From Staphylococcus phage LY01: a stretch of 64,000 nt of DNA. Of the stretch, positions 3,301 to 57,234 are shown piece by piece. Where the stretch lies: sequence record OR836606.1; one strand, given 5' to 3'. The notes under the pieces were generated by a model, which worked only from the letters and a program-made list of their open reading frames with translations, was not told the DNA's origin and made no database searches. The number at the start of each line of letters is the position of its first letter. Within the stretch, counting starts at the first letter, position 1. Both the position numbers and the translations under genes were made by a program.

Positions 3301-3449
3301 CTGTATTAGTACAATACAGATAAGACTATATCTTCTAATGTAATATATTTAGTCGTTGAACAACTTGTATTAAGTTGATGCTGATTAATCTAATAAGATA
3401 CTTCCAGCAATTAATATTATTTAATGTGAGCATCAAGTTTACCCACCTT
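3301..3449 (-). mobile_element. mini group I intron (family copy, minus orientation) in beta-prime C gene
   Basis: On the minus strand it contains the family core TTAATTGCTGG / ATCAGCATCA / GTTCAACGACTAAATA / GATATAGTCT plus a P9 hairpin (ctgtattgtactaatacag). It is flanked by coding sequence that aligns to beta-prime. Confidence 0.6.
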
Positions 3450-3461
3450 CTTGAGTCATTT

Positions 3462-3636
3462 ATGTTAACTATATTAAAATAATACAGATCAGACTATATC
3501 AAAAACTCTATATGAGCTTAATTATATTTAGTCGTTGAACACTATTTTTAGTGATGCTGATTAACTTAATAAAGGATCTCAGCAATTAATAATTTTTCGT
3601 ATATTATATTACTATAATAAAGGGCATTCATATACC
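3462..3636 (-). mobile_element. mini group I intron (family copy, minus orientation) in beta-prime C gene
   Basis: Same P/Q/R/S core elements as the other copies. The 5' leader aatgccctttattatagtaatataatatacgaaaaat is shared with the copies at 10056 and 10669. About 12-17 nt of exon (atgactcaagaaggtgg) separates it from the intron at 3301-3449. Confidence 0.6.
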
Positions 3637-4970: not shown

Positions 4971-6560
4971 TTGAAATATCTTAATAGATTAAAAAATCTT
5001 AAATTCTATTCAATATCTGGATATAAAATTAAAGCTATTGATGAAGAAATCGAAGATAAGAAAAAAGATCAGTTAGTTATTTATAAAGGTTTTAAAGAAA
5101 ATTCATTTACTGATTTTTTAAATAGTGGATTATTATATCATCAGAATTTTAAGAATATCTATATTCCGAGATTGTATAGAACTAGAAATAGAAGAACTAG
5201 ATTATTAACAAATATAACAGATTATCAAAAAGAGATTAAATCTAAATCTTACAAACAGTATAGAGTTGAAAGAAATGAGAAATTATTTAAAGGTAGAAAC
5301 TATATTGTTGATTCAACTAAATTTATTGATTTAGAAGATAAATCATTAATAACTAGAAATTTTAATACAGTATTGGATTCAATTAAATCAACTTTTAATT
5401 CTTTAAATAATGCAGAAGATTACAATAATTTATTATATGTAATTAATGTTGATGGGTATAATAAGTCTTCTCAAGAAGCAATTAGACCTAATACAAAAGA
5501 TTTCATGTCAAGCTTATTCATGATGATTAAGAATCAAGAGGAATTACCTCATGGTGAAAATCAAAATATTAATTTATTATTTGTCTCATTAGATAATGGA
5601 ATAATGTTTAAATTTGATTATAAAGATTATAATAAACTTAATATGAGACTTAGACAAAGATTAAGAAGAATCATTGATACTAATACACAAGCATTAGATA
5701 CTGATGAAATTAGTAAAGTTGAAGATGATGACAATACTGAAGCTGTAGATGGAGTAATTAAAAAGAAAGCATTTGATAATGTAGGAACAATTGATCCTAT
5801 CGAAGCTCAGAACGATGAAGCTGAATATGAAAATGATGAACAGTTAGAAAAAATATCTAATAAAATAGATTCTACAATAAGTTATATTAGATCATTAGAC
5901 AATACTGAAATGGATGTTGATGATGAATATAATATAGCTATGATAATTGAAAAAGAATTAAATAATAATAAAGATTTAATTGATATTGATACTGAAACAT
6001 TATATTCGGATGTATTGGATAAAAATGATTCATTTAAATCAATTAAGAGAAATATTAAAAATAAATCTAGTATTGGCGATGAAGCACTTAAAAATACTAA
6101 AAAGATATTAGCTTTATCCAAGAAACAAGATGAATACCTTAATGATTTAGAGGATTTTAGCTTTTCTGAAGATAAATTAATCGATAGAGAAATTAATGAA
6201 AATATTAATAATATTAATGAAGAGACTATTAATAATATTGCTTCTAATGATTTTGATGTTTCTTATATGCAAAAAACATTTAATAAAGACTTTATTGATA
6301 TAATGAAAAGCTTTAATGACAATGAAGATATTCCGGTATTTATTAATAAAATGAATATTGAAGATAATTCAGATAGTCAATCATTAAAAAATACAGTTAA
6401 AGTTCAATTTAGAAGTCCAGACGGTTTAACTCATAATGTTAAATTTGATGTTCCTAAAGTTATTGACGGTAAGTACATGAAGCTTAACGGTGGGAAAAAG
6501 ATATTAACTAAACAGTTAATGATGTGGCCAATCGTTAAATATAAACCGGATTGTTCATAA
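4971..6560 (+). CDS. rpoB: RNAP beta subunit, N-terminal exon 1
   Basis: C-terminal part VQFRSPDGLTHNVKFDVPKVIDGKYMKLNGGKKILTKQLMMWPIV aligns to E. coli rpoB [35 protein letters not shown]. A long acidic insertion is present. A Shine-Dalgarno-like sequence lies upstream. Confidence 0.55.
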   Translation: MKYLNRLKNLKFYSISGYKIKAIDEEIEDKKKDQLVIYKGFKENSFTDFLNSGLLYHQNFKNIYIPRLYRTRNRRTRLLTNITDYQKEIKSKSYKQYRVERNEKLFKGRNYIVDSTKFIDLEDKSLITRNFNTVLDSIKSTFNSLNNAEDYNNLLYVINVDGYNKSSQEAIRPNTKDFMSSLFMMIKNQEELPHGENQNINLLFVSLDNGIMFKFDYKDYNKLNMRLRQRLRRIIDTNTQALDTDEISKVEDDDNTEAVDGVIKKKAFDNVGTIDPIEAQNDEAEYENDEQLEKISNKIDSTISYIRSLDNTEMDVDDEYNIAMIIEKELNNNKDLIDIDTETLYSDVLDKNDSFKSIKRNIKNKSSIGDEALKNTKKILALSKKQDEYLNDLEDFSFSEDKLIDREINENINNINEETINNIASNDFDVSYMQKTFNKDFIDIMKSFNDNEDIPVFINKMNIEDNSDSQSLKNTVKVQFRSPDGLTHNVKFDVPKVIDGKYMKLNGGKKILTKQLMMWPIVKYKPDCS

Positions 6561-6803
6561 CAGTCCACTTTTATAGCAATATGAAAGTAAAAAGAATATT
6601 AATTGCTGAAACGGTTTTATTAAATTAATCAGCATCAATTATTATTAATTGTTCAACGACTAAATATATTCACTCTTATTGAGAGTATGATATAGTCTGT
6701 GCTCTAAATTGATAATTTAGAGATTGTATAAAATACAGATAAAAAATTCATATCAGAATTTCTCTTAACATATTTTTATAATATGATTAGGAGGTGAAAT
6801 TAA

Positions 6804-8006
6804 ATGATAAACAAAAACGGAAAATTAGTTAAATCTTTCAAAACTAGAATATACCCAAATCAAGATCAAATAAATTATTTCAATAAATGTTTTGGTGTAA
6901 GAAGAAAAATATGGAATATGGCTTTAGAAGACTATCAAAATAAAGATGATGACGCTCAATTTAGCGGATTTGATTATCAGAAAAAATTAAATAATGAAAT
7001 TTATGAATCTGGTAAATATCCCTATCTTTATGAAGTTAATAGCATGGTTAGACAAGAAGCTTTAAAAGACTTAGATGAATCTTTTAAAATATATAGAAAT
7101 GAACAAAAGAAAGCTAGAAAGTCTAAAGATGCAATTGACACTGAAAAATTTAAACCCAAGTTTAAAAAGAAAAAACATTCTAATGAGTCATTTAGATTTA
7201 TGGTTAAAGATAAGAAATATTTACCTATTAGATTTTTATCTAAGAAATGGATAAAAATTTCCGTAATGAAAGGAATTAAACCTTTTATAATCAAATCTAA
7301 AGAATCAATGAAGTTTATTAATTCTAATAACCATAGATTTCTCACTTACACTATAAGCAGAAAGAATGAAAAATATTATATTTCTGTAACTTATGAGATA
7401 AACAATTATAAGAAACAGAGATTGAATAATGATTCAATTGGTATTGATATGGGTATGAAAACACCATTAGTATGTGTAGATTCAAATGGTCAAACATTTG
7501 AATTTAAAATCCCACATAACTTATGGAAACAAGAAAGAAAAACTGAGAAATTGCAAGCAAAACTATCAAGTAAGAAATATTATTCAAAATCATATTACAA
7601 AACTTTAAAACAATTAAGAAAATCTTATAATAGAGAGTGTAATATATTAGAAGATTATAGAGATAAAATCACTAATTGGTTAGTTAAAAACTATAAAGTG
7701 ATTAATATTGAACCATATAGTCATAAAGCTTCTAATAATTTAAGAAATGCTCGTAGATCTAATAGAAGATTTGGCAAATATGATTTCCTAGAAAAATTAA
7801 AGTATAAGATTTTACAATATGATAATGAATTGAATATAATTACTAAAAAGAAAACTACACAAACATGCTCATCATGCGGTTATGTAAGAACTAACGATGA
7901 GAAACTTGTCATTGGCGATGATATTCATGATTGTCCTAAATGTAATGTAGTTCTTGATAGAGATTTAAATGCGGCTAAAAATATTCTAGATTTAAAATAT
8001 GTTTAA
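6804..8006 (+). CDS. tnpB: TnpB (IS200/IS605 OrfB-family RNA-guided nuclease), no TnpA
   Basis: RuvC-I (IGIDMGMK) and RuvC-II (VINIEP) motifs, Zn-finger (CSSCGY...CPKCN), and RuvC-III (DRDLNAAKNIL). Strong Shine-Dalgarno site. Confidence 0.85.
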   Translation: MINKNGKLVKSFKTRIYPNQDQINYFNKCFGVRRKIWNMALEDYQNKDDDAQFSGFDYQKKLNNEIYESGKYPYLYEVNSMVRQEALKDLDESFKIYRNEQKKARKSKDAIDTEKFKPKFKKKKHSNESFRFMVKDKKYLPIRFLSKKWIKISVMKGIKPFIIKSKESMKFINSNNHRFLTYTISRKNEKYYISVTYEINNYKKQRLNNDSIGIDMGMKTPLVCVDSNGQTFEFKIPHNLWKQERKTEKLQAKLSSKKYYSKSYYKTLKQLRKSYNRECNILEDYRDKITNWLVKNYKVINIEPYSHKASNNLRNARRSNRRFGKYDFLEKLKYKILQYDNELNIITKKKTTQTCSSCGYVRTNDEKLVIGDDIHDCPKCNVVLDRDLNAAKNILDLKYV

Positions 8007-8180
8007 TTAATTTCACAAAATAAAAGATATGAGAGTCGCCTGCGGTCAGCGGGAGACGATAAACGGGTGATAAGCTAATGTCTGATTAGCTTTACAAGGA
8101 GTACAGAGGTACCTCTATACGTTAGTCACTGAGCCAAGTGTATTTTATACAAGATCTTGCCTTTAGATTTAATTATTTAA
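8007..8180 (+). ncRNA. putative omega-RNA / IStron right end
   Basis: A GC-enriched segment with several hairpins (gtcgcctgcggtcagcgggagac...) lies immediately 3' of tnpB. This is atypical for a genome at about 25% GC and sits where TnpB guide-RNA scaffolds are encoded. Confidence 0.45.
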
Positions 8181-8189
8181 AATCAAGAT

Positions 8190-9556
8190 TTAACAAGACA
8201 GACAGTATGGATTACAACTAACTATAATAAATTCATTATAGAAAAATTTGGTTATAAAGAAAATGCTGAAACTGAATGGATCAAGAAAGTTATTGAAGAT
8301 GACCAAGTTATAGATTATATTGAAAATAAATCTAACTTATCTGTTAAAAAAGGTAATGCTTCTTTAATCAATAATAAATATGTAACTTCAGTTATTTATA
8401 ATAGCTTATCTAGAAATATATTAAATTTCCAAGATGACACTAATGTACTTGAATTTAATCAAAGAAGTTTATTAGCGATGATTTCTGATAGTGCTAGTTT
8501 ATCTAAAATTGATTATGATCAAGATAAATATTTCCCTATTGGTTATAATATTAATAAATCTAAATTAATATTAGCAGATAAGACAGAATCTGTTATGTAT
8601 GAATGTAGTAAGACTAATATTAAGTCAATGGAAATGAATATATTTGATTACCTTATTGATAAATTAGACAATGAAGTTGACTTTGGTGTTATTGATAAGA
8701 AATTCAGTAAGAATATTCAGGCTAATAAGACTATGGCATTTTCACGTGTTAAAATTACTAATAAATTAGTACCTACAATTTTATTATTAGGTTTCTATAA
8801 AGGTTTAACTAGTATTCTTGATCTTTATGAAGTTGATTATAAATTTACTACTGAGAATGAAAGAATTAGTATTCATGATAAAAAGAATAAAATTAAATTC
8901 CAAGATGGTTATTTAATATACTCTACTGATAAATTAAGATATGATTTATTAATGTCTGGATTAACTGTATTGCCTACATCACAATACAATTTCAGTGATT
9001 TTGAAACTGAAACACCTTACTTAGAATATTTCAATGATAAATTCTACAGTCGTAATGTTGGTAAAGGTATCAAAAATACTATGGATTTAGCAATGGATCC
9101 TATTACTAAAGAAGTATTAAGGGATTTAAAACTTCCTGATAATATGGTTGAATTATTACTATTAGCTAATACGATGTTAGAAGATGTATCAGCTAGAGAT
9201 CATAATGATATGGGAATTTATCGTGTACGTGGCCCAGAACAAATTAATGCATTATTATATAAAATGATGGCAAATGCTTATAAAGAATATTCAGATTCTT
9301 ATAATAATAAAAATCCTAAGAATATTTCAGTTAAACAAGATCAATTAATTAAAACTATTATGGAACAACCTACAGTGGATGAAGTATCTGATTTAAACCC
9401 TAACTTAGAAATAGATAAGATGACTTCTGTTACATTTAAAGGACCTGCTGGACGTAACTCTGAACAATCATATGAACCTGATATTCGTTCTTACGATGAA
9501 AGTATGCAAGGTATATTAGGAATAAGTACACCTGACAGTAATAAGGTAAATTACTT
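8190..9556 (+). CDS. rpoB: RNAP beta subunit exon 2
   Basis: The frame is open from about 8200, upstream of the annotated ATG at 8478. KGPAGRNSEQSYEPDIRSYDESMQGILGISTPDSNKV aligns to E. coli [39 protein letters not shown]. The annotated C-terminal LPLITVM* is intronic read-through. Confidence 0.6.
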
Positions 9557-9725
9557 GCCCTTAATTACAGTAATGTAATTCAATGAAAATTTATTAATTG
9601 CTAAAAATCTTTATTAAGATGATCAGCATCACTAAAAATAGTGTTCAACGACTAAATATAAATTCACTTATTATAAGTGTAAGATATAGTCTAATCTGTA
9701 TTAGATTATTATAGAATAATACAAA
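9557..9725 (+). mobile_element. mini group I intron in beta gene
   Basis: Family core elements; P8 hairpin cacttattataagtg; P9 ctgtattag...taataca. The exon ends ...AAGGT and the next exon begins after ...ACAAATG. Confidence 0.65.
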
Positions 9726-9885: not shown

Positions 9886-10031
9886 GTTCGCAATAAAATT
9901 ATTTAATTGCTGGAAAGCTTTATTAAGTTAATCAGCATCAGTTAAAGACTGTTCAACGACTAAATAATAATTACCATTTATATGGTGAAGATATAGTCTA
10001 ATCTATATTAATTTAATATAGAATAATAAAA
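9886..10031 (+). mobile_element. mini group I intron in beta gene (shortest copy; 5' leader GTAAGTTCGCAATAAAATTAT)
   Basis: Family core; P8 hairpin accatttatatggt; P9 ctatattaatttaatatag. Confidence 0.6.
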
Positions 10032-10055: not shown

Positions 10056-10238
10056 GGTATTAAAATGAATGCCCTTTATTATAGTAATATAATATACGAA
10101 AAATATTTAATTGCTAAGAATCTTTAATTAAAGAAATTAGCATCAAATTAATACAATTTGTTCAACGACTAAATAATATTATACTTATTTAAGTATTTGA
10201 TATAGTCTGATCTGTATTAAATTAATACAGTTAACATA
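10056..10238 (+). mobile_element. mini group I intron in beta gene
   Basis: Begins after the exon ...ACTGGT and ends ...ACATAAATG. P5 stem shows covariation (GCTAA/TTAGC here versus GCTGG/TCAGC in other copies). P8 is atacttatttaagtat. Confidence 0.65.
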
Positions 10239-10668: not shown

Positions 10669-10828
10669 AATATAATGTATAAAAAATATTTAATTGCTGG
10701 AAAGTCTTTATTAAGACAATCAGCATCATTAATTTATAATGTTCAACGACTAAATAATATTATACTTAATTAATATGTATTTGATATAGTCTAATCTGTA
10801 TTGATTAACTCTTAATGCAGTTAATATA
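10669..10828 (+). mobile_element. mini group I intron in beta gene
   Basis: Inserted between WNG|Y-NFED codons (exon ...TCATATGGT | intron ... ATAAATG | ACTTATGAGGAC). Family core elements present. Confidence 0.65.
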
Positions 10829-36548: not shown

Positions 36549-36714
36549 AGTCATAATCTAGCTTTTATATTTATTAAATATAAAATAGACTATATCATAC
36601 TCATTAATATGAGTGAATATATTTAGTCGTTGAACAACTCTTATTAAGTTGATGCTGATCATTCTAAAAAGAACGTTCCAGCAATTAATATTCTTTTAAT
36701 GGAACCTATTATCA
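36549..36714 (-). mobile_element. mini group I intron in DNA polymerase gene (minus orientation)
   Basis: Family core elements. Splits the Exo II motif between ...ICTAWN and LDYDFP (T4 ...IFTGWN|IEGFD). Confidence 0.6.
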
Positions 36715-37018: not shown

Positions 37019-37151
37019 ATTTGTATTAAAAGTAATACAAATTAGACTATATCTTCTTAGTAATATATTTAGTCGTTGAACATTAAATTTTTAATGATGC
37101 TGATTATCTTAATAAAGAATTTCCAGCAATTAATATTATTTTATCTGAGCT
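37019..37151 (-). mobile_element. mini group I intron in DNA polymerase gene
   Basis: Family core. The junction ...TTAAAGGT | intron | CCCGGACCC restores LKVPDP in frame. About 133 nt, among the smallest copies. Confidence 0.6.
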
Positions 37152-48165: not shown

Positions 48166-48198
48166 TTATTCTTTAGTTAAAGAGTATAAAGCTTGTAC
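48166..48198 (-). CDS. rpoC: RNAP beta-prime N gene, last exon (VQALYSLTKE*)
   Basis: Joined to the previous exon it gives ...NESNMLVQALYSLTKE, aligning to E. coli ...PSQDVVLGLYYMTRD. Confidence 0.5.
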   Translation of the reverse strand, partial: VQALYSLTKE

Positions 48199-48327
48199 CA
48201 TATTATTTATGATAATTAGACTATATCTTCTTAGTAATATATTTAGTCGTTGAACAACTTATATTAAGTTGATGCTGATTAATCTAATAAGATACTTCCA
48301 GCAATTAATATTATTTATTGAGAGCAT
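48199..48327 (-). mobile_element. mini group I intron (minus orientation)
   Basis: Family core elements; 3' end ...ATAAATAATATG. Confidence 0.55.
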
Positions 48328-48461
48328 ACAAGCATGTTACTCTCATTACCCAAATTACGTACTGAATTACCAGTGTAGTTTAGGTAGTTAGTTTTCTTAT
48401 TAAGAAGTTTATTAGCTTCTTTATTAGCCTCTACAGTCCAGAGAGATCTGATAGAAATCAT
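48328..48461 (-). CDS. rpoC: RNAP beta-prime N gene exon (DMISIRSLWTVEANKEANKLL...)
   Basis: D-MISIRSLWTVEANKEANKLLNKKTNYLNYTGNSV aligns to E. coli [36 protein letters not shown]. Confidence 0.6.
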
Positions 48462-48621
48462 ATCCATTTACGTTATCTATATTAAGATAATATAGATCAG
48501 ACTATATCTTTACTTTAATAAGCATATTATATTTAGTCGTTGAACACTATTTGTAGTGATGCTGATTAAGATAATAATCTTTCCCAGCAATTAATAATAT
48601 TTAAATACGGCAATATAAATT
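48462..48621 (-). mobile_element. mini group I intron (minus orientation)
   Basis: Family core; 5' end GGT|AATTTATATTGCC..., 3' end ...AACGTAAATG|GATATG. Confidence 0.6.
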
Positions 48622-48630
48622 ACCGTCAAA
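48622..48630 (-). CDS. rpoC: 9-nt micro-exon TTTGACGGT (Phe-Asp-Gly of the catalytic NADFDGD loop)
   Basis: The splice model gccgaT | intron | TTTGACGGT | intron | GATATGATTTCT reads ...LGADFDGDMISIRSL, reconstituting the universally conserved ADFDGD. No other junction choice gives the motif. Confidence 0.5.
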
Positions 48631-48811
48631 CGTTTATGTTATCTATAATAAATGATATCATAGACCAGACTATATCATCATCTCAATTGAGATATATTAT
48701 ATTTAGTCGTTGAACAACTTATATGAAGCTGATGCTGATTGCTCTAATAAGAGTTTTCAGCAATTAATAATATTTTCATTCTTAAATCACTTTAAGAAGC
48801 GACTTTTTCAA
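48631..48811 (-). mobile_element. mini group I intron (minus orientation)
   Basis: Family core. Its 5' leader GTCGCTTCTTAAAGTGATTTAAGAATGAAAATATTATTAATTGCT is shared with the copy at 49393-49550. Confidence 0.6.
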
Positions 48812-48825
48812 ATCGGCACCTAACG
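48812..48825 (-). CDS. rpoC: 14-nt micro-exon (..LGAD) of beta-prime N gene
   Basis: cgttaggtgccgat lies between the large intron and the next mini intron and supplies G-A-D of GADFDGD. Confidence 0.4.
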
Positions 48826-49200
48826 CTATTTAATTTATAATTAAATTTGGACTATATCATAAACCTAAATATTAGGTTCCCTCACACTTCGGGAATTCAT
48901 TTCCCTACTCTACTCACTTCGTTATAGTATTTCAACTATACTTATTCTCTATATAAGAGTTACATTTATTGTTTTCGATAGTCTCTGAACGTTTATCCAT
49001 CATGTGGATACTTCGCTGCTAGACTTTCCCATTATTAAATACCCTTAGCATTTTCAGCATAGGTCATCAAAGAGATTTTTTCTGTCTTTCGACTGCATGT
49101 CACGCTATCCATTACTGGCATACGTTGTAGCTCTCTAAGCATTAGGGTTTACAAGCAATTCATAAGGTATTTTTTATCCTATATTACTATAAGACTGGAG
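48826..49200 (-). mobile_element. larger group I intron (about 370 nt, no ORF), same R/S core with expanded peripheral domains
   Basis: The minus-strand reading contains GAATTGCTTGTAAAC (P), GTTCAGAGACTATCGAAAAC (R-like) and GATATAGTC (S). It is about 80% identical to the segment at 56265-56640. The 5' boundary is uncertain (about 49190-49215). Confidence 0.55.
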
Positions 49201-49392
49201 CGTAAGTTACTCCGGCATAACTGTTGTGTATAATAGCGGTATCTATAAATACATCTTCATCAACAGGATATTCATGAACAACTTTAGGATAATCTTTAAG
49301 TACAATATCGTCTAAAGTAATTTCAGGAATTGTATCAACTGTAGTCAATATTTTAATTTTGGCAGGTGCAACATTCAAGAAATTTTCGCAAA
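49201..49392 (-). CDS. rpoC: RNAP beta-prime N gene exon
   Basis: (C)ENFLNVAPAKIKILTTVD...NSYAG; follows region ...HVVYSRYPINTLV, which aligns to E. coli EHPVLLNRAPTLHRL. Confidence 0.45.
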
Positions 49393-49550
49393 CTATATTA
49401 AATTAATACAGATCAGACTATATCATTACCTACTTTTAGGTATATTATATTTAGTCGTTGAACAAGTTTAATTGACTTGATGCTAATTAACCTATTAAAG
49501 TCTTTTAGCAATTAATAATATTTTCATTCTTAAATCACTTTAAGAAGCGA
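49393..49550 (-). mobile_element. mini group I intron (minus orientation)
   Basis: Family core elements; 3' end ...TTTAATATAG. Confidence 0.6.
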
Positions 49551-50712
49551 CCAGTGTATTAATCGGATATCTTGAATAAACCACATGCTTATCTTCACAT
49601 ATTTCTGTAGCAGCTATATAAAGTAAATCAATTACAGTAAAAGTTCTACCTAAAGTATTTTCAAATAATTTAACTTTATGACGTTTACCTTGTCTATCAT
49701 TTACATATATAGGACTAAATCTTTCATTAGGATCCTTAATAAAGAATTCTAACATATTCTTAATAGCTTTATCATCAAACTGTTCATATACTTCTTCTAA
49801 TGATAATTCATTTTCATCAGTTCCAGTAGCGGTTTGGAAGGCATCTTTGTGGATTTCAATAAAATCGATAATGTATTTGCTAAAGAAAGGTAAGAATAAA
49901 GTAACTAATTGAGTTAATGGTACCCCTAACTGACCAAATTCAATTTGCATTTCATCCCATTTATTTGAATTAATCTTAGGTGAAGAAATAACTGAGCGAG
50001 TACTGTTATCTACCGTCTTACCTAAAATATTTCTTTGCATCATACCAGTTTTACCTGATAGTTCTCCTGAAGTTAATTTAACGTATATTTCAAATAATTT
50101 ATTTTGAATATTATATTTAGTCGTATTAGCTACAAAGTCAAATGAATTAAAACTAATTGAATCTACAGATCTTAAGATGCTTGCATACATATCATTTATT
50201 TCTTCAGTATCTTGAATTTCCCCTGAAGTTTCATTAGGATTAAAGTCACGATAGAAAGCAGGTATTACGAGCCATTTATCTGTGAATATTCTATCTTTAG
50301 GAGTATTTTTAAGCATATCAATTTTTTCATTTCGGATACGAGAATCATTTTTTCTAAATTTAAGATTTTCATAATTATCGTATAAGAAATTTAATCCAGT
50401 TTCACCATTTTCATCTGGAACTAATTGTCCTTTCTCAATTTTAAAGTAATCAGAACCTTGAATACATAGATCTATATTCTTATCTAATTCTCTCATAGCT
50501 TTATAAGCTACAGGATTCAAGTATTTGCCACCTAAATTAATCCAACCTATATTATTCTTTCTTTCATCAGTACCTATTAAACCAAATATTTCATATGAAA
50601 ATAAACCATCTTCTTTAGGTAAAGTTCCTGAATCAAAGAAAATAGGATTAGTAACTTCTTTAGCTCCATAAGCTGTAATAACTTGATCAACATTAACCAT
50701 ATCTATTTTCAT
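49551..50712 (-). CDS. rpoC: RNAP beta-prime subunit N-terminal exon
   Basis: LPKEDGLFSYEIFGL aligns to E. coli KPERDGLFCARIFGP. GWINLGGKYLNPVAY aligns to GHIELASPTAHIWF. WLVIPAFYRDF aligns to WMILTVLPVLPPDLRP. NILGKTVDNSTRSVISSPKI aligns to [21 protein letters not shown]. Confidence 0.75.
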
Positions 50713-53050: not shown

Positions 53051-53751
53051 TTAGAATTTAATCATATTAGATACAAATGAACTATTTGAAGATTCCAATA
53101 CTCTAACACCAATAGATTCAATAATATCTTTACCTGGTTTAATATGATCTTCAATCATACTATCATAGTCAATAAAAGGTCTAAACTCTTCAGGAATTGT
53201 ATTACCTTCAACTGCAATTACATTTAAACCGTTTTTAACTAAACTTTCATTCTTAAATACTTCTCTAAATCTATCTAAAGTATCTTCATCAGTTATCTTA
53301 TTTTTAATATCTCCAAATGTACTAATATTCAATTTAACTGCTAATATCTTAGCAGGTAATGCTATTTCTTTTTCTGGGAACATTATATTCCATGCTAAAG
53401 CAGCTCTATATGCCATTTGAGAATAAGGGTCTTTATATACCTCAGCATTATTAGCTTTAAACGGTTTTAAGAATTCGATTTCTCCATTATCTAATGATTT
53501 CTTAATCATTTCTTCTATATCTTTAAATTTACGTATTATCTTAATACGATCTACACCGGTTTTATTTTCTAAAATATCTTTTTGTAATATTTCAGTAAAT
53601 AGTTCTCTAATACGTTTATTAGTATTAACTTTTCTAATAGCCATACCTTTAACATCTAAATCTGGAGGTTGAATTAAATTACCCTCTTGTTGAATTACTG
53701 ATGATGCATAAGTTTTCTTTTTATCAGTTGTTAATTGTTTATCAAGTAAAA
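53051..53751 (-). CDS. DNA polymerase part 2, C-terminal exon
   Basis: The frame is open upstream of the annotated Met. ...DKKKTYASSVIQQEGNLIQPPDLDVKGMAIRKVNTNKRIRELFTEILQKDIL aligns to T4 gp43 ...[51 protein letters not shown]. Confidence 0.6.
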
Positions 53752-53893
53752 CATTTTTATTAGCTTTATTAAATTAATAAAGATTAGACTATATCTTATA
53801 CTTATATTAAGTACATTTATATTTAGTCGTTGAACTTAATTTCTTAAGCTGCTGATTTAATTAATGAACTATTCCAGCAATTAATAAATTTAT
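53752..53893 (-). mobile_element. mini group I intron (minus orientation) in DNA polymerase part 2
   Basis: Family core elements; 3' end ...GCTAATAAAAATG. Confidence 0.55.
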
Positions 53894-54161
53894 CTTTCTG
53901 TATATCGCTATACAACGGAGCATTAACTTGATAATACTCATTTTTCATTGATATTAAACCTAAATGTTCTTCCTCTAATCCTACATCTTTACAGAATCTA
54001 TAGTAAGACAATTCTAATAATTTAGTTATTTGATAGTTAATAATAGATATATTACTTACACGTTGTTCTAATTTATCCTCTAAACCATTCTCTGCAATTG
54101 GAAAATCTTCAGGTTTTAAAGATTTAAATTTTTCGTATAACGGATCTAAGTGAACAAAGTT
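53894..54161 (-). CDS. DNA polymerase part 2 exon (after motif C)
   Basis: NFVHLDPLYEKF... follows DTDS directly. T4 gp43: DTDSVYVCVD. The annotated ATG is the ATG of the intron 3' end ATAAATG. Confidence 0.6.
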
Positions 54162-54315
54162 CATTTATGTTAGCTGTATCAAATATAATACAGATCAGAC
54201 TATATCTTCTTTAGAAATATATTTAGTCGTTGAACTTAATTTCTTAAGCTGCTGATTTGATTAATAAATCATTCCAGCAATTAATATTTTTTATTGACAG
54301 CAATTTTTTATCACA
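54162..54315 (-). mobile_element. mini group I intron inserted right after polymerase motif C (DTDS|)
   Basis: Family core elements. Read-through tail ...NCWNDLLIKSAA of the upstream ORF is intron-encoded; the same tail occurs on ORF 53844..54164. Confidence 0.6.
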
Positions 54316-54888
54316 ACTGTCAGTATCTATAGTTAATACGCTTCTACGTTTCTTGTAATTCATTCTATACATTCTATTATAATCTTGATAATTATATATA
54401 ACCCAATCTTTTAATATTTCAAATAATTCATCTAATAATGGAATCATATCTTCAGGAGGATCATTTGGATCTAAGAAATCTTCTCTGCCAGTCATTTTAC
54501 TAATTTTATTATCAAATATATCGGTATGATCAATTAACCCAAATAAATTATTTTTGAAATATACTTTATTTTTATCTTCTTGACTTAATTTACTAAATAC
54601 TTCTTCTAACTTAAGAAAATCTTCTTCACTATAATCTTCTTCAACATTAGAAACTAAACCTTCTAAAATTTCTTTATCAGTTGGAATTGATTTTATCTTA
54701 ATATCATGATCTTCATATTTTTCACTAATTATTCTTAATATATAATGATATATTTCATCAATCTTCATGAAAAAGATTTTACCGCCAATAAATCTTTCTA
54801 AAGCTATCGCTGAAGTAGTTACAATATCAACTGCTATATAAATTCGTGAATTTAATTTAATTAATTCGAATTTATTCGACTTCGTCAT
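54316..54888 (-). CDS. DNA polymerase part 2 exon containing motif C (LTIDTDS)
   Basis: RSVLTIDTDS aligns to T4 gp43 FIAAGDTDS. The true 5' end of the exon is the IStron 3' splice site near 54889 and is not determined. Confidence 0.55.
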
Positions 54889-55030
54889 TACTTTTACTTA
54901 CTTTGCACTTTAAGTTTTTCGTTATAAACTACTTCAACATAAAGTGTCAACCAAAGCAGAGGTTAAAGCTCTTAAGTCATCACATTTGGACATTCAAGAG
55001 AATTTAAATCTAGTTAGCCTGCCCAACAAA
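54889..55030 (-). ncRNA. putative omega-RNA / IStron right end of TnpB-2
   Basis: GC-enriched segment ...gctgctgtcaacctcaaaatgtacggtaagcgttttgttgggcaggctaac... overlaps the tnpB 3' end and extends beyond it. Confidence 0.4.
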
Positions 55031-56158
55031 ACGCTTACCGTACATTTTGAGGTTGACAGCAGCGTTATAATCTCTATCCATTTTATTTCCACAATCACAC
55101 TTATACCATCTATCTGATAACTTCATCTTATTTTCTTTAGTTAAGACTTGACCACAATTAGAACATAATTGAGTTGATGGGAACCATCTATCTGCTACAA
55201 TAATAGTATTACCATTGCTTTCAGCTTTTTGTTTTAATAAAGTTCTGAATTGTCTCCAATTCATTGCAGAAATAGATTTAGACAAATTTCTATTTTTAAT
55301 CATATTTGAAACTTTAAGATCTTCAATTGTAATATACTGATAATTTTTAATTAAGTTAGTAGTTATTTTATGAAGATAATCTTTTTTAATGTTATTAATT
55401 CTCATCCATATTTTTTGTATTTTGGTTTTCAATACATTGTATTTGTTAGAACCATAAACTTTACGAGATAATCTTTTTTGATAGTACTTAATCTTATTGT
55501 ATAGTGGAATCAATTTATCATTTAATGAATGATATTTCTTAAATTTACCGAAATCATCATTAATGATAGCTAAATCTTTTACACCTAAATCAATACCAAC
55601 ATGGCTATTGTTATGAATTAAGCTCTTATTATTATCAACTTTCATTACTATTGAAGCGAAATATTTTCCAGCATATTTAGATATAGTAACTTCTTGAATG
55701 GAATTATAATTAAACGGGATAGATTCTTTCATTTTAATTAATGAATTAATTCCTTGAAGTTTTAATTTATTATTTTTATCGCCTTTAATTTGTAATGAAT
55801 AATTATTCTTCTTATAGAACCTTGTACTTAATTTAGAATGTTTTTTAGATTTAAATCTCGGATACTTACCGTAACCTTTCCACATCATATTAAAAGCTTT
55901 ACCTAAATCTTCAGTTGCTGTGTCCATAACTTGAGATATTTGATCTTTTTCCCAATCTTCTTTACATTTTTTAAGTTCATCACGAACTTTCCTATGTGTT
56001 GGTTTTGGAAGAGATGTATCAAGTTGATGAGCATTCCACATTTGTTTCCATTTATTAAGCCCTTTATTATAAATATATCTAGAATATCCAAATGCTTGAT
56101 TAAATACTTCTTTTTGTTCTTTATTTGGTTTCAATTCGATTTTAATAGATTTGTACAT
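55010..56158 (-). CDS. tnpB: TnpB (IS200/IS605 OrfB-family RNA-guided nuclease), no TnpA
   Basis: MYKSIKIELKPNKEQKEVF (N-terminal HTH); RuvC-I VGIDLGVKDLA; RuvC-II ITIEDLK; Zn-finger CSNCGQ...CDCGN; RuvC-III DRDYNAAVNL. Confidence 0.85.
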   Translation of the reverse strand: MYKSIKIELKPNKEQKEVFNQAFGYSRYIYNKGLNKWKQMWNAHQLDTSLPKPTHRKVRDELKKCKEDWEKDQISQVMDTATEDLGKAFNMMWKGYGKYPRFKSKKHSKLSTRFYKKNNYSLQIKGDKNNKLKLQGINSLIKMKESIPFNYNSIQEVTISKYAGKYFASIVMKVDNNKSLIHNNSHVGIDLGVKDLAIINDDFGKFKKYHSLNDKLIPLYNKIKYYQKRLSRKVYGSNKYNVLKTKIQKIWMRINNIKKDYLHKITTNLIKNYQYITIEDLKVSNMIKNRNLSKSISAMNWRQFRTLLKQKAESNGNTIIVADRWFPSTQLCSNCGQVLTKENKMKLSDRWYKCDCGNKMDRDYNAAVNLKMYGKRFVGQAN

Positions 56159-56724
56159 GTGATTTCACCTCCTTCAAATATATAATATATACTTAAAGTT
56201 AGTGATGAATTTTAATTAAATTAAACTCACGAATTCCTGATTTAGTGTTTCCACATCAGTTAAATAGCAAGACTATATCATATTCTATCAGAATGATAGA
56301 ACCCTCGCACTTCAGGAATATTATTTCCCTACTCTACTCACTTCACATAGTATTTCAACTATGCTTATTCAGGCGTTAATCCTGTGCTTTCGATAGTCGT
56401 TGAACGTTCATCCATCATGTGGATGCTTCGCTGCTAGATTTTCCATTAGTCCACCCTTAGCACTTAATTTACATTAAGCTTTTATTTCAGCCTAGGTAAT
56501 CTTAGAGTATTTTTTCTGATTTTCATCTGCTTTCACGCTATCCATTACTGGTATACGTTGTAGCTCTCTAAGCTTTAGGAGTTTACAAGCAATTCACGAG
56601 GTTTGCTCACTTCTTTCATGAATTAAACTAACTTTAATTCACTATGAAGTAAGGGAGTTTTGATTAACTATTTTAAAATAATTTAAGTGAGCAATTCGTG
56701 TTAAATCACTTAAATTATATTAAA

Positions 56725-57234
56725 CTAAAATAGTTTCTTTTCTCCACTATAAGTAGTTGCTGGACCTGAATTAGCATCATAGAATGTACTATTTTTCTGT
56801 ATCATAGCACCGTAATAACTGTTAGCTAAGATCTTAATTGTTTTTTGTTCATTCATATATTTATCATGTAAAACATCATCTTTACCTTTATAAATAAACA
56901 TATTGTGCTTAGCTACTTTACGAGAATCTATAAAGTCTTTTAACATTTCCGCATTTAAATTTTTTCTTTGTGATTGAGGCTGATAAATAGAACCAGAACC
57001 AGTTACAATTAAATTATTATTAATAATTTGTCTTAAGGTTGTATCTACATTCATTTTTTGTCCTGATATTTCTATTAAAGCTGGATCTAAATGTTTTTTA
57101 ATATATTCTCTACAGGCATTAATTAGTTTCTCATCATCAATATCAGGTTTTCTTATTTTAATTAATTTAATTAAATTTTCTAAATAACCCGTTATAGCCC
57201 TTTTACGTTCATATTTATTATCTTGATTAGACAT
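56725..57234 (-). CDS. DNA polymerase part 2, first exon (starts with its own Met; polymerase motif B)
   Basis: QKTIKILANSYYGAM aligns to T4 gp43 motif B KILINSLYGALG. GPATTYSGEK aligns to ATAITIFGQ. N-terminus NKYERKRAI aligns to T4 QRKDWKKKM just after the part-1 split point. Confidence 0.65.
   Translation of the reverse strand: MSNQDNKYERKRAITGYLENLIKLIKIRKPDIDDEKLINACREYIKKHLDPALIEISGQKMNVDTTLRQIINNNLIVTGSGSIYQPQSQRKNLNAEMLKDFIDSRKVAKHNMFIYKGKDDVLHDKYMNEQKTIKILANSYYGAMIQKNSTFYDANSGPATTYSGEKKLF

Follow-up and report, generated by a model that had tools for sequence, protein, structure and literature searches.

The DNA polymerase gene of Staphylococcus phage LY01 is interrupted by a 1911-nucleotide (nt) element that combines a group I ribozyme with a tnpB gene and a structured 3′ RNA, and this element is probably an IS607-type ('group B') IStron whose serine-recombinase gene has been lost. 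It lies on the minus strand of a 64,000-nt stretch of the phage genome (sequence record OR836606.1; hereafter the window; G+C content 25.0%), and we regard it as one composite mobile unit, for which splicing and homing are proposed. IStrons are already known from bacterial chromosomes and from phages c-st and D-1873, and the copy in the polymerase gene adds a new host and a new setting. We searched the literature for IStron or TnpB in combination with jumbo or Staphylococcus phages, and in the papers searched neither a jumbo phage nor the polymerase gene of any phage was described as carrying an IStron. An earlier interpretation of the letters of the DNA without database searches (the sequence-only reading) had placed an IStron between motifs B and C of this gene, and the empty site of the related phage PALS_2, the ribozyme core and TnpB all agree with that placement.

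Results

Removal of the element in silico restores the polymerase gene

On the minus strand of the window, open reading frames (ORFs) with family-B or 'divergent' DNA polymerase domains are split into pieces. In the two regions that were compared, the polymerase and the beta' loci are approximately 93% identical to those of the Staphylococcus jumbo phages MarsHill, Madawaska, PALS_2 and S6, which form an AR9-like group with uracil in place of thymine reported in some members (bioRxiv 10.1101/2020.12.14.422802). Using the uninterrupted polymerase gene of PALS_2 (1935 nt) as the empty-site reference, four blocks of the window could be aligned at 91-96% DNA identity, with insertions of 1911 nt (56741-54831), 154 nt (54315-54162) and 184 nt (53935-53752), all on the minus strand. 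When these three insertions are excised in silico, a 1935-nt ORF is obtained, and its product of 644 amino acids (aa) is 97.4% identical to the PALS_2 protein without a gap. The largest insertion lies in the catalytic domain, between motif B and motif C, and an IStron at this polymerase site was found in no other phage of a collection of 50,697 records.

Since the dinucleotide AG is found at both junctions (..GTGG AG AAAAG.. and ..ATAGC AG TTGAT..), three registers are available at the DNA level, and 54833-56743 would be an equally possible extent. The sole register with a restored frame and a terminal intron G is GGAG/...GCAG/TTGAT (slashes mark junctions), which gives the protein junction ...TTYSG/VDIV.... 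The ORF that carries exon 1 spans 56725-57234, and neither the residues EKKLF before its stop nor the ORF start 'MTKSNKFELIKLNSRIYIA' is exonic, as both fall inside the IStron. The element had been drawn earlier at 54889-56720 with an mRNA junction ...TTYSGEK.... It is real, and its parts occur in the minus-strand order that had been described (motif-B exon, intron, TnpB, right end and an exon that ends in the DTDS of motif C), but its edges had been misplaced by 21 nt on the 5′ side and 58 nt on the 3′ side, and the residues EK belong to the intron.

The 5′ part folds as a group I ribozyme core with covariation

The R box GTTCAACGACTA (56405-56394) and the S box GATATAGTC (56279-56271) of a group I intron are both present on the minus strand of the element. 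Each box occurs 17 times in the window, where about 3.4 R boxes and about 0.7 S boxes are expected, and none of this is chance. For the comparative structure we aligned eight sequences, namely the polymerase copy, a related copy in the beta' gene, a copy in Listeria phage LPJP1, two metagenomic contigs, and Streptococcus, Enterococcus and Lactococcus phage sequences, in which the core is located between split ribonucleotide reductase ORFs and beside capsid and DNA polymerase III genes. The P1-P9 fold was drawn by hand with P7 written as a pseudoknot, and the controls were the same fold with partners slid by 1-3 columns and 500 shuffles. Standard pairs fill 82.5% of the cells in this fold, compared with 36-44% in the slid controls, and changes on both sides of a pair (compensatory changes) are found at 43 pairs versus 8-20; none of the 500 shuffles attained the observed values. 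Compensatory change affects all seven pairs of P5a, and covariation is also seen in P3, P6, P8 and P9. The ribozyme part extends over about 505 nt to P9, and 583 nt lie before the start of tnpB, so that the earlier estimate of about 450 nt for the intron was too short.

At the 5′ splice site, the terminal G of the exon faces a C of the guide CUCC (56657-56654), where canonical group I introns have a U-G wobble. This guide is complementary to the GGAG of the exon and lies within TCAAAACTCCC, which is conserved in the window and in LPJP1. The intron-terminal G (omega G) of canonical group I introns is present (...GCAG/TTGAT). A P10 pairing between AUCAA and UUGAU is found in the window only and may be a chance event. 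In the P1-loop position, LPJP1 also has a hairpin, with another sequence, and the ORF-less beta' copy has none. We also considered the long hairpin AACTATTTT.../...AAAATAGTT as P1; it would add 5-6 residues to the polymerase and was ruled out by the comparison with PALS_2 and by the conserved CUCC guide.

The element encodes an intact TnpB

The ORF at 56158-55010 and the ribosome-binding site AAGGAGGT before it confirm a second TnpB with its own Shine-Dalgarno site, as had been read from the sequence. All three Pfam domains (HTH_OrfB_IS605, OrfB_IS605 and Cas12f1-like_TNB) were detected, the NCBIfam model guided_TnpB scored 254.6 bits against a cut-off of 100, and the protein aligns end to end with the solved TnpB structures 8iaz and 8bf8. 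The RuvC-type catalytic motifs GIDLG, TIEDL and MDRDYN are kept, as are the zinc-finger cysteines. Against two metagenomic homologues, the ratio of nonsynonymous to synonymous divergence (dN/dS) is 0.07-0.18, which is a rough sign of purifying selection because dS is near saturation. Staphylococcus phage LY01 has two intact TnpB proteins at 86% identity. Relatives of TnpB were found by tblastn in 355 phage records, and no relative was found among the viral contigs searched; identity to the protein of phage c-st is about 36%.

The TnpB part has a structured 3′ RNA and is closed by a long stem

The 179 nt from the tnpB stop to the right end share a consensus structure with their counterparts in a set of six homologues, in which 12 of 19 pairs show compensatory changes (RNAalifold), and a long-range stem joins AUGACUU (54974-54980) to AAGUCGA (54876-54882). 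By its structure and position, this 3′ RNA looks like an omega RNA scaffold and is predicted to be one; no omega RNA family was matched in Rfam scans at the gathering threshold on the window or at E <= 10 on 12 kb and 2 kb. The right end had been described as GC-rich, but its G+C content is 27.9% versus 25.0% for the window. An exact right-end pattern gave zero matches in viral contigs.

The longest inverted repeat of the region (I1) has arms of 24 nt at 56235-56212 and 54864-54841, which are 96% complementary and 1347 nt apart. Its duplex is worth -28.7 kcal/mol, compared with -9.0 +/- 2.9 kcal/mol for shuffles, and counterparts are present in LPJP1 and in two further copies of the element (L004 and L005). 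The entire TnpB part is looped out by the I1 stem, and UAUAUAGCAG/ comes just after the stem.

A relative with a serine recombinase points to group B

We assign the element to group B because the copy in LPJP1 has the same ends, occupies an unrelated site and carries an IS607-family serine recombinase. The similarity (71% DNA identity) begins at the ribozyme core and reaches precisely to the 3′ end; the LPJP1 copy begins GTGGAG/AAAAGAA..., ends ...TTTATATAGCAG/ and lies just upstream of groL, a site unrelated to the polymerase. Its 209-aa protein scored 178 bits with the NCBIfam model transpos_IS607 (cut-off 110) and also matched Pfam Resolvase. In the record of LPJP1 (MZ422438; L003 in our set), this full-length IStron (254-2710) is annotated merely as 'hypothetical protein' and 'IS607 family transposase'. 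The TnpB gene of LPJP1 has an in-frame TGA within the zinc finger, directly after CSCC. Other copies are likewise found at unrelated sites: L004 is intergenic, L005 lies upstream of NrdD-domain genes, and the ORF-less copy is in beta'.

In the literature, group B IStrons are recognized by GG in the target, by G as the last base of the 5′ exon and by a stem of AT-rich inverted repeats, and many of them have lost the serine recombinase but still carry TnpB (PMC4227781, PMC13565253). A GG-containing target with a 5′ exon ending in G is found in the window (...TATAGTGGAG/), in LPJP1 (...AAAGTGGAG/) and in beta' (...GCCGGAG/). Splicing after G has been demonstrated experimentally for BcISt1 (PMC4227781, PMC13565253), and group B copies without ORF A are common (PMC4227781). 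A group A IStron (IS200/IS605) was rejected, since the 5′ flank GGAG is not a T-ending pentanucleotide and the full-length relative in LPJP1 has a serine recombinase and not Y1.

An ORF-less copy lies in an array of introns in the beta' gene

The sequence-only reading had also pointed to a copy without TnpB in beta', about 80% identical. The pairwise alignment of 48826-49200 with 56265-56640 that it proposed gave 82.6% identity over ungapped columns and a score of 388, compared with 127 +/- 11 for shuffled sequences, and annotated relatives identify the host gene as that of the viral RNA polymerase subunit beta'. Using the intron-less PALS_2 beta' gene as the reference for boundaries, we found that this copy is inserted after GGAG (...GCCGGAG/UAACUUACGCUCC...), ends in ...AAATTAAATAG/ (...AAAUAG/) and shares the unusual P1 of the polymerase copy. 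ORF-less relatives have been reported for BcISt1, and this copy looks like such a relative of the polymerase-gene IStron.

The beta' gene (48166-50712, minus strand) consists of exons of 1152, 178, 14, 9, 126 and 33 nt with introns of 173, 384, 181, 157 and 140 nt, and its joined exons give an ORF that is collinear with the uninterrupted gene of PALS_2. Its ADFDGD motif is partly encoded by micro-exons of 14 nt (48825-48812) and 9 nt (48630-48622) between three consecutive introns. In the 64 kb as a whole there are 17 group I intron cores, of which 15 are 'mini' (37-51 nt from R box to S box). The six mini-introns with fixed ends measure 140-184 nt, a very small size for group I introns. Those of the polymerase gene follow 5′ exons that end in U; for the 154-nt intron, whose last base is G, this U is paired to a G in P1.

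TnpB elements with and without a ribozyme point to modularity

The window contains another IStron at about 6560-8200 (plus strand), with a mini-intron core (R box 6651, S box 6689) followed by a 400-aa TnpB (6804-8006). The two TnpB proteins are distinct and divergent, as had been judged by eye, and their identity is 31% (E = 6e-25) instead of the estimated 25-30%. The 3′ region of this other IStron is GC-rich, unlike that of the polymerase-gene IStron. A shared core of P, Q, R and S boxes had been taken to imply modular recombination between intron and IS parts. As an argument this is weak, because all 17 introns share the boxes and the mini-intron of the other IStron is of a different build; modularity itself is backed by stand-alone TnpB elements.

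Stand-alone TnpB genes of the same clade, without a ribozyme, are carried by six ENA/Logan contigs (L007-L012; TnpB at L007:2501-3712). Their left-end similarity to the IStrons starts at ...AAAGTGGAAACAC, that is, at the P9 loop GTGGAAACAC, where L007 and L012 read ...ATATAAAGTGGAAACACAAAATCAAGAAATTTAAATTTATA, and they end in ...TATAAGGCAG. Compared at the sequence level, these elements support the view that intron and IS parts can separate or join, by loss or by gain of the intron. The metagenomic contig L004 has the full ribozyme and TnpB and reads ...TTGATGTGGAAACACGAAATCAAGAAATTTAAATTTATA. At L004:4320-4340, the gene downstream has its called start codon within the IStron's right end (TTTTATATGACAG/TTAGT), so that the element may supply or mask the start of this gene.

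On ENA metagenome contigs of about 235-255 kb, there are more than 100 distinct TnpB clusters that are about 60% identical to the TnpB of the polymerase-gene IStron, often two to three clusters per contig, and a neighbouring gene has homologues in 506 phage records, which points to a set of large phages in which this TnpB clade is abundant. A pattern from the S box to P9 gave one match in JGI metagenomes and none in 185,579 reference bacterial and archaeal genomes. The 16-base P9-loop pattern gave 38 matches in viral contigs; none of these adjoins an S box, so all were treated as chance. The coordinates of all features are collected in Table 1.

Table 1. Features of the polymerase-gene IStron, the interrupted polymerase gene and related introns in the window
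Feature	Position	Strand	Description
Whole IStron	54831..56741	-	1911 nt, AAAAGAAAC...TTTATATAGCAG; missing from the intron-less PALS_2 allele
DNA polymerase catalytic subunit, exon 1	56742..57234	-	493 nt; motif B KILANSYYG; ends ...TATAGTGGAG; Pfam divDNApol/DNA_pol_B; 94% identical to PALS_2 polymerase nt 1-491
GGAG, final 4 nt of 5′ exon	56742..56745	-	Proposed P1 exon strand, insertion target and TnpB target-adjacent motif
Long AT-rich hairpin in P1 loop	56666..56735	-	Inverted repeats I2, I4, I6 and direct repeat D5; copy of the inverted-repeat motif; putative left-end recombinase-binding region
Internal guide sequence	56654..56664	-	AUCAAAACUCC; CUCC pairs with exon GGAG (P1); AUCAA could pair with 3′ exon UUGAU (P10)
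Ribozyme core (P2, P3, P4, P5 with extensions, P6, P7, P7.1, P7.2, P8, P9)	56237..56653	-	Subgroup-IA2-like; hand-drawn on the 8-sequence alignment
P9 loop GTGGAAACAC	56245..56254	-	Onset of similarity to stand-alone TnpB elements L007-L012
5′ arm of AT-rich stem enclosing the TnpB part	56207..56236	-	Inverted repeat I1
tnpB	55010..56158	-	382 aa; ribosome-binding site AAGGAGGT at 56167-56174
3′ untranslated region to right end	54831..55009	-	Omega RNA scaffold-like; includes 3′ stem arm (54842-54867) and 3′ splice site ...UAUAUAGCAG/
First 20 nt of exon 2	54811..54830	-	TTGATATTGTAACTACTTCA; would-be guide of an omega RNA reading through the right end; from TnpB/omega RNA layout (PMC10690162)
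Polymerase exon 2	54316..54830	-	515 nt; ends in motif C ...LTIDTDS (GACAGT/)
Mini group I intron directly after DTDS	54162..54315	-	154 nt; R and S boxes; boundaries versus PALS_2
Polymerase exon 3	53936..54161	-	226 nt
Second mini group I intron	53752..53935	-	184 nt; R and S boxes; boundaries versus PALS_2
Polymerase exon 4	53051..53751	-	701 nt; Pfam divDNApol C-terminal part
ORF-less relative of IStron ribozyme	48826..49209	-	384 nt; in viral RNA polymerase beta' gene; boundaries versus intron-less PALS_2 beta'
R/S box pairs, window, first part	near 3324-3361, 3492-3540, 6651-6697, 9643-9691, 9951-9998, 10160-10207, 10741-10791, 36588-36635
R/S box pairs, window, second part	near 37045-37081, 48219-48255, 48500-48545, 48668-48715, 49416-49463, 53787-53835, 54198-54235

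Discussion

Based on the anatomy of the element, we propose a mechanism by which it could persist in the polymerase gene and spread. In the transcript, the 5′ part of about 505 nt would fold as a group I ribozyme while the 24-bp stem loops out tnpB and the 3′ RNA, and the same I1 stem would return the 3′ end ...UAUAUAGCAG to the catalytic core. The CUCC guide of the pre-mRNA would pair with the exon GGAG, the cut would fall after G rather than after the usual U, and ligation would follow after the terminal G of the intron. The predicted spliced RNA is ...ACTTATAGTGGAG joined to TTGATATTGTAAC..., i.e. ...AGTGGAG-TTGATATT..., coding for ...TTYSG-VDIV..., by which the phage would keep a working polymerase. 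TnpB and its guide RNA could come from this transcript or from another that starts internally, with the right end as the scaffold and the first ~16-20 nt of exon 2 as the guide. The transcript would then have alternative fates, splicing with rescue of the polymerase or maturation to guide RNA, a model that we take by analogy from the tested Clostridium botulinum IStron (PMC10690162, PMC13521648). If TnpB requires GGAG next to its target, its complex would cut the IStron-free allele, where TTGATATTG... comes immediately after GGAG; such an allele could be that of a co-infecting phage or one left by excision. With the IStron-bearing copy as the repair template, the element would be copied in, which would amount to RNA-guided intron homing, and the resident copy would be spared because GCAG, not GGAG, precedes the target there (position -3).

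Several observations weigh against this interpretation and have to be set beside it. No serine recombinase gene was found in the 64-kb window, so present-day transposition would need help in trans. The 3′ terminus is CAG and not the CGG of group B, in the window as in L003, L004, L005, L006 and L007. The Rfam group I model had no match at the gathering threshold on the whole window or at E <= 10 on 12 kb and 2 kb, and for this reason it is comparative structure that places the ribozyme in group I. P1 has just four base pairs with a G-C pair at the cut site, and its three copies show zero covariation. The exact restoration of the frame is the sole ground from which we infer splicing, and the omega RNA and its ends are putative. 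In addition, all five IStron-free relatives (L001, L002, L017, L018 and L019) read GGTG/TTGAT where the spliced window would read GGAG/TTGAT (e.g. L002:3477-3526), and the empty sites of MarsHill and PALS_2 are identical over 22 nt to the start of exon 2 of the window. The difference between GGTG and GGAG is synonymous in a Gly codon and falls on the proposed recognition motif and the P1 pairing, so TnpB might lack a natural target among the known relatives; GGTG may reflect resistance or simple ancestry, as it fits either. Finally, related phages have been reported (bioRxiv 10.1101/2020.12.14.422802) with uracil in place of thymine, a kind of DNA on which the activity of TnpB is hypothetical.

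Some of these points would suit a relic, that is, a spliced but immobile passenger which lost its recombinase after one entry, is harmless through splicing and has an inactive TnpB and 3′ RNA in this phage. The missing recombinase gene, the GGTG at the site in all known IStron-free relatives, the absence of the element from the polymerase gene of every other phage in the collection and the in-frame stop in the LPJP1 zinc finger, which tells that copies do decay, all fit it. We nevertheless judge a relic improbable: TnpB is full-length with its catalytic motifs, its dN/dS points to purifying selection in the clade, compensatory changes conserve the structure of the 3′ RNA, and LY01 keeps two intact copies of TnpB. 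A different history, in which a stand-alone TnpB element inserted itself into the P9 loop of an ordinary group I intron and the two parts remain independent, agrees with the similarity of L007-L012 from the P9 loop GTGGAAACAC onward and with the ORF-less ribozyme copy in beta'. This nesting seems very unlikely to us, since the 3′ strand of P9 and the 3′ splice site are within or at the end of the TnpB part, which would leave the intron without a 3′ end of its own. Moreover, LPJP1, L004 and L005 carry the complete composite at unrelated sites, in each case with identical outer ends, and a copy of the end-repeat motif sits in the P1 loop.

It is also hardly credible that the polymerase is truly interrupted, with its halves made as separate polypeptides or the gene dead. 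The reading of exon 1 does meet a stop six codons past the junction, and an in-frame ATG at 54888 opens an ORF running into exon 2, as a split gene might have. However, no ribosome-binding site precedes this ATG, the interruption falls within the catalytic domain between motifs B and C, the four exons match PALS_2 at 91-96% (DNA) and 97.4% (protein) with zero frame defects, and the insertion has a ribozyme fold that is supported by covariation. A group B IStron without its recombinase gene is the reading that we prefer.

Compared with the known group B IStrons, namely BcISt1 of Bacillus cereus and CboIStron/CbISt1-4 of C. botulinum (CbISt3/4 in phages c-st and D-1873), the element has the same organization of a 5′ subgroup-IA2-type ribozyme and a 3′ TnpB with structured RNA (PMC4227781, PMC10690162, PMC13521648). 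As in those elements, the target contains GG, the G of the 5′ exon is paired to C, a long AT-rich stem surrounds the IS part, and the element ends are the (here predicted) splice sites. Among group B elements the recombinase gene is commonly lost with TnpB retained, which would be the case here too, and the LPJP1 homologue keeps an IS607-family serine recombinase. The right end also departs from the target at position -3, here GGAG versus GCAG, as in the tested C. botulinum IStron with TGGG versus TCGG (PMC10690162). Unlike them, the element terminates in CAG and not CGG, has AG and not GG as junction dinucleotide, uses the target GGAG where theirs is AGGG, TGGG or GAGG, and starts with A and not U. 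Its P1 loop bears a 70-nt hairpin with a copy of the end-repeat motif, its TnpB is only about 36% identical to the c-st protein, its host is a jumbo phage, and its site is a DNA polymerase gene. Group A IStrons such as CdISt1 of Clostridioides difficile (IS200/IS605, with a tyrosine HUH transposase) likewise join a group I intron to TnpB, and their ends are also splice sites. The T-rich pentanucleotide targets (TTGAT, ATTAT, TTTAT), the 5′ exon ending in U, the TCAG end, the subterminal palindromes and the Y1 transposase are features of group A that are not found here.

The group I introns of phages that carry homing endonuclease genes (T4 td, SPO1 and the Twort/K-like staphylococcal phages) are similar in residing in a conserved gene of DNA metabolism, in looping a nuclease ORF out of a peripheral stem, and in being expected to spread by cutting the intron-less allele in mixed infection. 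Unlike these introns, the element would use TnpB with a predicted guide RNA and not a protein-only HNH, GIY-YIG or LAGLIDADG nuclease, and it has transposon ends and a recombinase-bearing relative. The stand-alone IS607/IS605-family TnpB elements of phages belong to the same TnpB clade (about 60% identity) and have the same right-end architecture ending in CAG (L007-L012), but they are intergenic and without a ribozyme, whereas the polymerase copy is inside an essential gene. As a broader and tentative speculation, which we think is rather unlikely to hold in full, the TnpB-only IStrons of large phages might be RNA-guided homing introns, or gene drives between co-infecting phages, in which TnpB stands in for the protein homing endonuclease of the classical phage introns and works on the uracil-substituted DNA of this clade; the synonymous GGT in place of GGA in all IStron-free relatives would then be a resistance allele without the motif that TnpB needs.

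In conclusion, we describe an IStron in the polymerase gene of a jumbo phage lineage. For annotation, the finding matters because Rfam missed all 17 of the intron cores that the motifs revealed in the window, and published annotations of related phages label such genes as fragments or 'hypothetical'. According to a 2026 review, intron homing by TnpB-only IStrons awaits experimental test (PMC13565253), and the polymerase IStron can serve as a natural system for testing TnpB-driven homing, as it is located in an essential gene and the Staphylococcus jumbo phage lineage that carries it can be cultured. Since its IStron-free close relatives differ by one base at the proposed motif, mixed infections could directly show whether TnpB drives its spread.

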